Origin: Escherichia coli
GTDB taxonomy: Bacteria; Pseudomonadota; Gammaproteobacteria; Enterobacterales; Enterobacteriaceae
Assembly: GCF_030013595.1 (NCBI RefSeq)
Contig: NZ_CP122768.1
Strand: one strand, 5' to 3'
Length of the DNA: 64,000 nt
The stretch's first letter is position 1. Each line of letters starts with the position of its first letter. This document shows, piece by piece, positions 7,633 to 10,048 of this stretch. The position numbers were made by a program, and so were the translations under genes. The notes beneath the pieces are model-generated. The model saw only the letters and a list, made by a program, of their open reading frames with translations. It was not told where the DNA came from and did not search any database.

Positions 7633-8199
7633 ATGGCAAGTCAGGCTGAGGTCGCAGCACATTTACTGCTATCTGATCGTCGTCTGCGCGATCTTGCAAA
7701 ACTTCCGGGAGCTCCAGTCCCCCAAGGACGTGGCGATTGGGAACTTGACGCATGGCGCCATTTTTATATTCGTTATCTCCGGAGCAATAGACGCGACACA
7801 ACTAGTAATGACGAACCGGAAGCGGGGGACAATTCTCCCGAAAAAAATCGCGAGCAGTGGTTGAAAAATGAGGAACGGCAGGAGCGAATCCTGATGGCTC
7901 GCGTGAAACGCCGCATTCTTGCTAAACGCTACGCGCCAATTGAATTAATCAGCGTAGCTGTATCTCGCGTCGCAGTTGAATTACGTACCCGTGTCGAATC
8001 GTGGCCACCACGGTTAAAAAAGGTGTGGCCGGAAATGCCGCAGGAGGCGAGCAGTGTATTACGAGAGGAGCTGGCAATAGCCCTGAATGAACTGGCAGAC
8101 ATACGAATCGACTTCAGCGATTACGATGTCAGCGATATCGAACGCGATCTCGACAGGGTTGAATCCCTTGCGCGTGACGATACCGATGACGGGGGTTGA
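7633..8199 (+). CDS. Terminase small subunit (Nu1-like DNA packaging protein)
   Basis: N-terminal HTH-like segment comparable to lambda Nu1; immediately upstream of, and overlapping, the gpA-like gene. Confidence 0.6.
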   Translation: MASQAEVAAHLLLSDRRLRDLAKLPGAPVPQGRGDWELDAWRHFYIRYLRSNRRDTTSNDEPEAGDNSPEKNREQWLKNEERQERILMARVKRRILAKRYAPIELISVAVSRVAVELRTRVESWPPRLKKVWPEMPQEASSVLREELAIALNELADIRIDFSDYDVSDIERDLDRVESLARDDTDDGG

Positions 8200-10048
8200 G
8201 TGGGCTGATAAACATTTTTATCTTCCCGAAGGCTCAAGCCATATTGCTGGCCACTGGACGACTCAGCCGGTCCAGGTAGTGATGTTAAATATGATGACGA
8301 ACGACGCGATAAAAATCGTGTCTGTTCGCAAATCAGCTCGTCTCGGTTATACAAAAATACTCGTCGCGGCGCTGCTCTATTTCGCTGAGCACAAAAAACG
8401 TAGTGCCGTGGTCTATCAGCCTATCGATGACGAATCGGATGGATTTGTCGCCGACGAGGTTGACCCCGCTATCGCCGAAATGCCGGTGATTCAGAAAATT
8501 TTCCCCGACTGGGATAAAAGCAACGAGCGTAACAATCTCCAGCGTAAAGAGATGAACGGGGCGATTATCGATTTTCGTGGCGCGAGTGCACCAGGAAATT
8601 TCCGGCGACTGACGAAACAGGTTGTCGAGGGTGACGAAGTCGACGGCTGGCCGCTGGAGGTTGCAAAAAAAGGCAAGGGCGAGGGCTCGCCCATCGAGCT
8701 GGCGCTCGTTCGAATTAAAGGTGCAGCGTACCCAAAAGCAATTTTCGGTTCGACGCCGACCGTTACCGGCAAAAGCCATATAGAAATGTTGGAAGACGCG
8801 GCTGATCTGACGTTTCGTTTTTACCTGAAGTGTCCGCATTGTGGCGAGGAGCAGGTCCTGGTATTTGGTTTCGACGGTATCGAATACGGTCTCAAGTGGG
8901 ATGACAGCCTGCAGACCAACGAGTCGAAATCGTCGTCCGCGTATTACCAGTGCTGCCACTGCCCGGAGCATTTTTACTATCGCGATCTCGAAAAAATGGA
9001 GCTCGCGGGGCGCTGGATAGCAGAGGACTGCACCTAGACGCGGGACGGCATTCATTTTTTTGATCACGACGGTGGTGTCGTTCGCGCGCCGAAACACGCG
9101 GCGATCGTGATAAACGCCCTGTATTCACTGAATCTCGACGGCTGGGGCGAGATTGTCAGCGAGTGGCTGAAAGCGAAAGGCGACCCACTCAAAGAAAAAA
9201 CGTTTCATAACACGACGCTCGGCGAGCTCTGGAGCGACGTGGCCAGCGAGCAGCTGGAGCACGATATTCTCGTTAATCGCCGGGAAAAATACGCCAGCCA
9301 GGTTCCTGACGGTGTTGTTTATATAACCGGCGGCATCGACTCTCAGACGTCCGGGCGCTACGAGTGTTACGTGTGGGGCTGGGGATCTGAGGAGGAGTGT
9401 TGGCTGATTGATAAAACAATCGTCCTCGGTCGCTACGACGAGGAGGACACGCTGCAGCGCGTCGACGGAGTGATTCGTAAACAATACCAGCGCAGCGACG
9501 GGACCACAATCGGCGTCAGTCGTTGGGCGTGGGATACCGGTGGTATAGACGCGCAGGTCGTTTATAACCGCTCGCTCAAACTCGGTCCGCTGTGGGTCAT
9601 TCCGATCAAAGGCGCGAGCTCATACGGCCAGCCGGTCGTAAATATGCCGCGTACCCGTAACGCGAATAAAGTTTATTTATCGTTAATCGGTACTGATACG
9701 GCAAAAGATTTGCTCGCGATGCGTCTGCCGCTGGAACCCGACCCTAAATCGGCGACACCGGGCGCAATTCATTTTCCCAACGACGATGAAATATTCGGCA
9801 CGACAGAGGCAAAACAGCTCGTCTCCGAAGTTCTGATCCCAAAACTCATTAACGGTCGCGTCGTTTATCGCTGGGACAATCAGGGCCGGCGAAATGAAGC
9901 GCTCGACTGCTGGGTGTACGGACTGGCGGCGCTGCGTATCAGTAAAATTCGTTTTCAGCTCAATCTCGAGACGCTCGCTGAGCAACGGAAAAAATCACAA
10001 AACAAACTGTCTCTCGAGGAGATGGCCAGAATGCTCGGAGGGAGCTAA
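8186..10048 (+). pseudogene. Terminase large subunit (lambda gpA-like) interrupted by an in-frame TAG at 9035..9037; ORF-track fragments 8087..9037 and 9107..10048 are in the same frame
   Basis: Both fragments align to lambda gpA from memory (VEWAD..., CPHCGEEQ, TRDGI, GIDSQ, WGWG, IPIKGAS, RNEALDC); translation continues in frame across the stop with no frameshift. Confidence 0.75.

Follow-up and report, generated by a model that had tools for sequence, protein, structure and literature searches.

In a stretch of 64,000 nucleotides from an Escherichia coli genome (contig NZ_CP122768.1 of assembly GCF_030013595.1; referred to below as the window), two neighbouring open reading frames (ORFs), 8087..9037 and 9107..10048, both resemble gpA, the large terminase subunit of phage lambda. 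The locus raises the question of whether a prophage terminase gene has been broken by a stop codon, how this stop arose, and whether the prophage has lost the ability to package its DNA. The answer that we consider quite probable is that the prophage carries a genuine, inherited nonsense mutation in its terminase gene, which originated by deamination at a Dcm methylation site, probably with loss of packaging, and which represents a recent event of ordinary prophage decay.

The interrupted large terminase gene

Both ORFs lie on the + strand and share one reading frame, as their start positions, 8087 and 9107, each leave a remainder of 2 on division by 3. Translation of positions 8087-10048 contains a sole stop (...RWIAEDCT*TRDGIHFF...), the amber codon TAG at 9035..9037 on the + strand, in the sequence context GAC TGC ACC TAG ACG CGG. 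When this stop is masked and the protein is read from ATG 8186, it aligns with lambda gpA over 624 residues with 43% identity (BLASTP, E = 6e-170). A match of this quality, extending across the stop, cannot be due to chance; the alignment is unbroken at the TAG, which replaces Trp284 (counted from ATG 8186) and is aligned with W301 of lambda gpA.

Two Pfam domains could be identified in the masked protein: GpA_ATPase (PF05876) at residues 18-277 (E = 3.6e-47), including a Walker-A-like KSARLGYT motif at residue 49 (KSARVGYS in its lambda counterpart), and GpA_nuclease (PF20454) at residues 308-589 (E = 3.3e-63). Codon 284 is located in the linker between these two domains. The N-terminal fragment (8186..9037, + strand, 283 codons plus TAG) therefore contains the whole GpA_ATPase domain, and the GpA_nuclease domain is encoded in the in-frame rest of the gene (9038..10048, + strand, 336 codons plus TAA). 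As it lies 3' of the TAG, the nuclease domain is absent from the predicted product. Gene callers present this remainder as a separate ORF of 313 residues starting at GTG 9107. A sequence search of the terminase against PDB chains gave no match at E <= 0.01. Judged from the alignment and domain content, the gene is by descent a large terminase of the lambda gpA type, but a broken one.

The true start of the gene is likely ATG 8186 or GTG 8174 rather than 8087, because these two were chosen by the annotators of related genomes; with GTG 8174 the N-terminal fragment has 287 codons. Compared to lambda gpA, the terminase is without about 27 N-terminal residues (window 8174-8270), as the alignment begins at lambda residue 29. 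The N-terminal part of lambda gpA touches the small terminase subunit.

The codon that preceded the stop could be identified by comparison with relatives. TGG is present at this position in seven close relatives (phage vB_EcoM-705R4, the E. coli strains HCP5S3_I2, GF131, GF43, Z0117EC0036 and A42, and assembly GCA_044060275.1); with lambda gpA included, the number of relatives with TGG is eight. An intact allele of 624 residues (P0021), found on 12 contigs of a public collection, is the same as the window translation from GTG 8174 except for a W at the stop, and the gene 3' of the stop is identical to that allele. In addition, among eight other gpA-type terminases that were aligned, seven have Trp in this column (phages of Escherichia, Vibrio, Pseudomonas and Ralstonia); it is found in lambda, phi80, two Vibrio phages, one Pseudomonas phage and one Ralstonia phage, and an Alteromonas phage has Ala. 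Because TGG in the relatives, the W of P0021, W301 of lambda and the Trp of the other terminases all agree, a single G-to-A change at 9036 explains the lesion, and Trp is supported as the ancestral residue. A literature search on phage vB_EcoM-705R4 retrieved one unrelated mention and nothing else.

The stop codon is shared by other assemblies. TAG was found in five assemblies from different submitters (GCA_053639475.1, GCA_036246605.1, GCA_021887745.1, GCA_002968075.1 and GCA_002460785.1), the flanks of which are 99.8-100% identical to the window. GCA_021887745.1 (JAKLOW; locus L015) is the porcine O138:F18 enterotoxigenic E. coli (ETEC) strain 9910297-2STM, which was assembled with SPAdes from Illumina MiSeq 150-bp paired reads (PMC8931358). 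In a collection of 15 billion proteins, the exact truncated products of 283 and 287 residues, both ending in ...AEDCT, are present on 13 and 15 contigs, respectively (28 together), and the C-terminal fragment that begins at GTG 9107 appears in 107 indexed blocks. One of the truncated products also has a RefSeq accession. Both terminase fragments can thus be found in public databases, where each has been entered as a protein of its own. The exact 61-mer with TAG was found in none of the 5,426 complete RefSeq E. coli genomes, a set which therefore does not include the genome that the window comes from. In viral collections, a 41-mer with TAG gave one match, the 22-kb IMG/VR contig IMGVR_UViG_2778261251_000020, which by its identifier looks like a prophage prediction from an isolate genome rather than a virome sequence, and as such would be uninformative on packaging.

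Since five independent assemblies, one of them Illumina-based, carry the TAG, it is real, and by its distribution in these sequences it is a genuine, vertically inherited allele of one lineage. A first-pass annotation of the window had described two gpA-like fragments in one frame, separated by a single TAG with continuous translation across it, and had explained the stop by one G-to-A change in an expected Trp codon. The ORF coordinates, translation, BLASTP alignment and comparison of relatives agree with each of these statements, and the assembly error that this annotation had named as an alternative is ruled out by the identical TAG in the five assemblies, including the MiSeq/SPAdes one.

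Predicted effect on DNA packaging

Translation of the mutant gene would stop in the linker following the ATPase domain, giving a fragment of about 32 kDa. This fragment would be devoid of the nuclease domain responsible for cos cleavage and, if lambda is a guide, also of the C-terminal end that docks to the portal. Upon induction, lysis would still occur and proheads and tails would still be made, with few or no DNA-filled particles expected. Loss of packaging is a reasonable prediction from the domain layout and from lambda genetics. The first-pass annotation had called the prophage likely packaging-defective; the part of this claim that stands is the lesion itself, an in-frame TAG that is present in several independent assemblies, removes the whole GpA_nuclease domain and affects a gene essential for virions, and the loss of packaging has the standing of a prediction.

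Several points weigh against a complete loss of function. The phenotype is predicted from the gene, the rest of the genome may encode a tRNA that suppresses amber codons or a second terminase that complements the defect, and low-level synthesis of full-length protein by read-through is also possible, as the codon after the stop begins with A. An A in that position tends to favour read-through or suppression in E. coli context studies. The gene could thus still work by suppression, by read-through of UAG, by re-initiation to give two cooperating fragments, or by means of a terminase supplied in trans. The layout of the locus leaves some room for this, as the stop lies between domains, is directly followed by a purine, and has the next in-frame start, GTG 9107, only 70 nt downstream; with the rest of the late region intact, a restored terminase would give particles. 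However, no Shine-Dalgarno-like sequence was found 5' of GTG 9107 (upstream sequence AAACACGCGGCGATC), and a restart there would yield an unlinked nuclease fragment without residues 284-307 and without the covalent link of motor and portal-docking end. The suppressor check proposed in the first-pass annotation was carried through for the window, where ARAGORN and Rfam identified no tRNA gene in the 64 kb, and wild E. coli strains seldom carry amber suppressors. In the nearest complete relative this terminase region is present as a single copy. Moreover, one of the TAG carriers has a second lesion in the gene (see below), as expected if constraint is gone, and classical lambda A amber mutants fail to grow on non-suppressing hosts. 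Taken together, we regard a gene that is still working as unlikely.

The predicted packaging defect would be reversible. Packaging would be regained if the stop were suppressed, the codon reverted, or the gene mended by recombination; as everything else is intact, a single back-mutation, or a single recombination event with a related phage, would suffice to make the phage functional again.

The prophage, its lineage and the question of selection

Positions 1-28373 of the window constitute the late half of the prophage. They encode a Q antiterminator, holins and an endolysin, followed by a head module in lambda-like order: small and large terminase, gpW, portal, S49 protease, decoration protein, major capsid protein and FI. 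These identities were taken from the annotation of a 99.9% identical relative and from Pfam matches on neighbouring genes. The large terminase is accordingly found in the lambda-like neighbourhood that is characteristic of the gpA type. The tail, in contrast to that of lambda, is of the contractile P2 type, with baseplate, sheath and tube. The small terminase subunit gene (7633..8199, + strand, an ORF of 188 residues) overlaps with its 3' end the start of the large-subunit gene. It is labelled 'small subunit terminase' in the annotation of phage vB_EcoM-705R4, and its equivalent in E. coli relatives is either a 'terminase small subunit' of 101 residues or a hypothetical protein of 188 residues. 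Downstream of the large terminase, and also on the + strand, are the gpW-like head-tail joining gene (10048-10281; Pfam gpW) and the portal gene (10278-11852; Pfam Phage_portal_2), both identified from the ORF, the annotation of relatives and Pfam.

The right prophage end, attR (28374..28429, + strand), consists of the 3' 56 nt of the tRNA-Leu gene leuZ and is an exact match to leuZ positions 32-87 of strain VCSW5, from which we conclude that the prophage is integrated in leuZ. This segment was considered as a functional or suppressor tRNA, as RefSeq lists a 105-nt 'tRNA-OTHER' in a relative; ARAGORN and Rfam find none, and the segment is an att remnant. To the right of the prophage, the window continues into the E. 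coli chromosome, with yecA, tyrP, ftnA, araFGH, otsBA, flhDC, mot/che, flhBAE, argS and torYZ.

Prophages of this family are present in about 441 of the 5,426 complete RefSeq E. coli genomes with 90-96% identity; by their identical scores and O25b:H4-like type, most of these records appear to represent a single clone. Closest to the window among complete genomes are those of two pig-faeces isolates from the UK, HCP5S3_I2 and LCP30S3_I5, with 99.9% identity, and the lineage of the window is itself pig-associated.

Some further features were observed on the left side of the window and beyond it. An ORF of 59 residues at 7072-7251 is, according to the annotation of a relative, a frameshifted and incomplete remnant of a small terminase of another type. 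Between this ORF and the resident small terminase gene there are about 380 bp without annotated gene; the region 7072-7632 could be a cos region, a recombination scar, or both. In the early region of relatives, to the left of the window, a DUF262/GmrSD_N-type gene is present (L018 1-908 and L006 4738-5796, L018 and L006 being the loci of two relatives discussed below), which could be defence cargo of the prophage. The pig strains also have an element of the insertion sequence (IS) family IS3 in the early region left of the window.

Comparison of the window with the pig strains gave 30 substitutions, of which about 14 could be assigned as derived on the window branch and about 11 on the sister branch by polarising with outgroups. 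Within the 64 kb, no window-specific change other than the amber codon is disruptive; the rest are synonymous, missense or intergenic. The visible lysis genes, head genes (other than the large terminase) and tail genes match those of intact relatives. Among the TAG carriers, a region of 6.9 kb varies by 0-1 substitutions, and in two of the carriers it additionally shows one indel each relative to the window: a 1-base deletion in L015 and a 12-base insertion in L017. The deletion in L015, the O138:F18 strain mentioned above, shortens a run from A7 to A6 at 8665-8671 and results in gene calls of 204 and 83 residues. A second lesion in the same gene is as predicted for relaxed constraint. With the amber as the only disruptive change, nearly identical carriers, and a downstream gene identical to the intact allele, the comparison points to an evolutionarily recent, single-hit lesion.

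The terminase gene of the sister lineage has been hit in another way. In HCP5S3_I2 and LCP30S3_I5 an IS10-family element (annotated ISVsa5) is inserted at the site corresponding to 8722..8730 of the window, with the target duplication TGCAGCGTA; the window itself is without insertion. This element splits the terminase in NZ_CM149870.1 (locus L006, about 16783-18111), where the amber site is TGG. L018, which also belongs to the sister lineage, has an intact terminase with TGG and without insertion. As L018 is intact and the IS is found in the two pig strains, the gene was functional in the common ancestor and was inactivated separately on each of the two branches.

Other differences were recorded along the prophage. 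Five of the 30 substitutions are at the edges of mononucleotide runs (2587, 8023, 8196, 11940 and 16042); in four of these (2587, 8196, 11940 and 16042) the run is lengthened, for example from GGGTTTTTTT to GGTTTTTTTT or from GGGGGT to GGGGGG. As they recur in independent assemblies, these changes are apparently genuine hotspots associated with the runs and not errors; a G-run followed by T has been described as a mutation hotspot (PMC13250602). Indels relative to the sister lineage at 25146 and 25190 (a 3-bp AAT and a T8/T7 run) are intergenic, 5' of the tail protein X gene. A C7/C6 run difference at 27444, near the 3' end of the gene with the tail-fibre N-terminal domain, would alter the C-terminus of the protein. 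In L010 (strain A42, NZ_CP028734.1, locus 14458-16032), a more distantly related copy of this prophage family, it is the portal gene instead of the terminase gene that has an internal stop and an annotation as pseudogene.

The first-pass annotation had further suggested that the prophage is a domesticated element, whose cargo genes may be under host selection. This suggestion found no support: the evidence fits a recent single hit and lacks the power to reveal selection. The genes that are visible are those of an ordinary temperate phage, and the intact ancestral allele is still circulating. Carriers are separated by 0-1 substitutions per 6.9 kb, and the window lineage has only about 14 derived substitutions over 64 kb, so that too little time has passed since the lesion for selection to be tested.

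A stronger version of the selective explanation is that inactivation itself was favoured, as it would convert the prophage into an element serving its host, either by the release of free contractile tails acting as a bacteriocin or through an ATPase fragment that poisons the terminase of related phages. The independent disruption of the gene by an IS10-family element, with the close relative L018 intact, fits this idea, as do frameshifted terminase products of other strains (P0003, P0004, P0008 and P0030), ISEcp1 insertions somewhere in the 7600-10300 interval in two strains, and intact tail and lysis genes. However, terminase, whose gene is longer than any other in the late region, offers a large mutational target, the internal stop of A42 is in the portal gene instead, and a cell still lyses when terminase is missing. 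Furthermore, the lesion is located at a known mutational hotspot (discussed below) and can be explained without selection, and as the roughly 441 complete genomes are mostly one clone, the independent events are too few for a rate test. We therefore consider selected inactivation in this lineage very unlikely, and likewise, by a slight margin even more so, the general form of the idea, namely that terminase is the preferred inactivation target in the family of leuZ-integrated contractile-tail prophages, with packaging loss selected via released tails or an ATPase fragment. If the latter were true, it would reveal an early, observable step in the conversion of phage to tailocin, or of phage to defence element. 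The IS insertion of the sister lineage is of interest in this respect only if a phylogenetic count shows an excess of terminase lesions.

A former Dcm site and ordinary prophage decay

The amber codon overlaps a former Dcm site at 9033..9037, where all relatives read CCTGG but the window reads CCTAG, as seen by sequence comparison. Viewed from the bottom strand, G-to-A at 9036 corresponds to C-to-T at the inner cytosine of 5'-CCAGG-3', the base that Dcm methylates, so that the substitution has the form of a Dcm deamination, i.e. an ancestral CCWGG with the inner C changed to T. Dcm sites are hotspots of G:C-to-A:T changes in E. coli (PMC13250602). We propose that the inner cytosine of the bottom-strand 5'-CCAGG-3' was methylated by Dcm, that the resulting 5-methylcytosine was deaminated to thymine and missed by repair, and that the G-to-A change of the coding strand was then fixed, turning TGG (Trp284) into TAG.

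The route resembles that of the amber hotspots in E. coli lacI, which Coulondre, Miller, Farabaugh and Gilbert (1978) reportedly attributed to 5-methylcytosine at Dcm sites. Alike in lacI, in the hotspots of PMC13250602 and in the present gene is that an inner C-to-T change in CCWGG yields an amber codon. Unlike in lacI, the methylated cytosine is here on the non-coding strand, with TGG rather than CAG changing to TAG; moreover, the origin is here deduced from natural variation and not from a mutation screen, with Dcm activity as an assumption.

A second CCTGG/CCTAG difference relative to the sister lineage was found at window positions 27406-27410. The changed base, 27409, is synonymous (CTG/CTA, Leu, codon 290) in the gene of a 'prophage tail fiber N-terminal domain-containing protein'. 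Two of the 30 single-nucleotide differences between the lineages thus fall on the 0.48% of window positions that are the inner C or G of a Dcm site (P about 0.009). This enrichment is consistent with a hotspot and falls short of proof. A third CCTAG in the window, at 11553, is not a former Dcm site, since outgroups have CCACG or CCCCG.

Three considerations detract from the proposed Dcm origin. The change at 27409 may be of either polarity, as that segment is missing from the outgroups. The case for deamination is circumstantial, G:C-to-A:T being the commonest substitution class in any event. Finally, an active Dcm in this lineage is assumed, with dcm and vsr located outside the window. The dcm gene is common in E. 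coli.

The same motif made us suspect at first a base-calling artefact of nanopore sequencing, in which a true TGG at a Dcm-methylated site would be read as TAG. Purine-to-purine miscalls at the methylated position would look identical to the allele found, the change is exactly at the methylated base of CCWGG, a difference of the same type is present at 27409, and several differences from the nearest complete genome are at homopolymer edges; nevertheless, such an error is scarcely credible and was ruled out, since the TAG recurs in the Illumina MiSeq/SPAdes assembly and in four other drafts from different submitters, the truncated proteins are encoded on 28 contigs, the sister-lineage differences at homopolymer edges are seen again in the independent assembly L018 and hence are real polymorphisms, and 35 kb of chromosomal sequence show zero indels between the window and its relative.

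We conclude that the lesion is a case of ordinary mutational prophage decay, in which both the type of event and the Dcm route are textbook. The gene and lambda A share one protein family with GpA_ATPase and GpA_nuclease domains, and the gene order from small terminase to FI is also shared. The amber codon in gene A recalls the classical lambda A amber (sus) mutants. Those mutants are laboratory alleles, whereas the present one is natural, fixed in a wild lineage and known from sequence alone. Similarity is also evident with the defective (cryptic) prophages of the K-12 type, which likewise carry a lesion that inactivates a gene needed to make virions, are inherited vertically and accrue further lesions, as in L015. 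Compared to these, the present prophage is at a much earlier stage, with one point mutation, lysis, head and tail genes matching those of intact relatives, and a lesion that is reversible.

Several consequences follow from these findings. For annotation, a 'terminase large subunit family protein' of 283 or 287 residues and a 'terminase gpA endonuclease subunit' of 313 residues should be read as one broken gene. Variants at methylation motifs should be checked against independent short-read data before they are called error or biology. As a natural case, the locus cleanly illustrates how a transition at a Dcm site gives rise to an amber codon, and in the porcine ETEC-associated lineage that carries it, the prophage is to be scored as probably non-transmissible.

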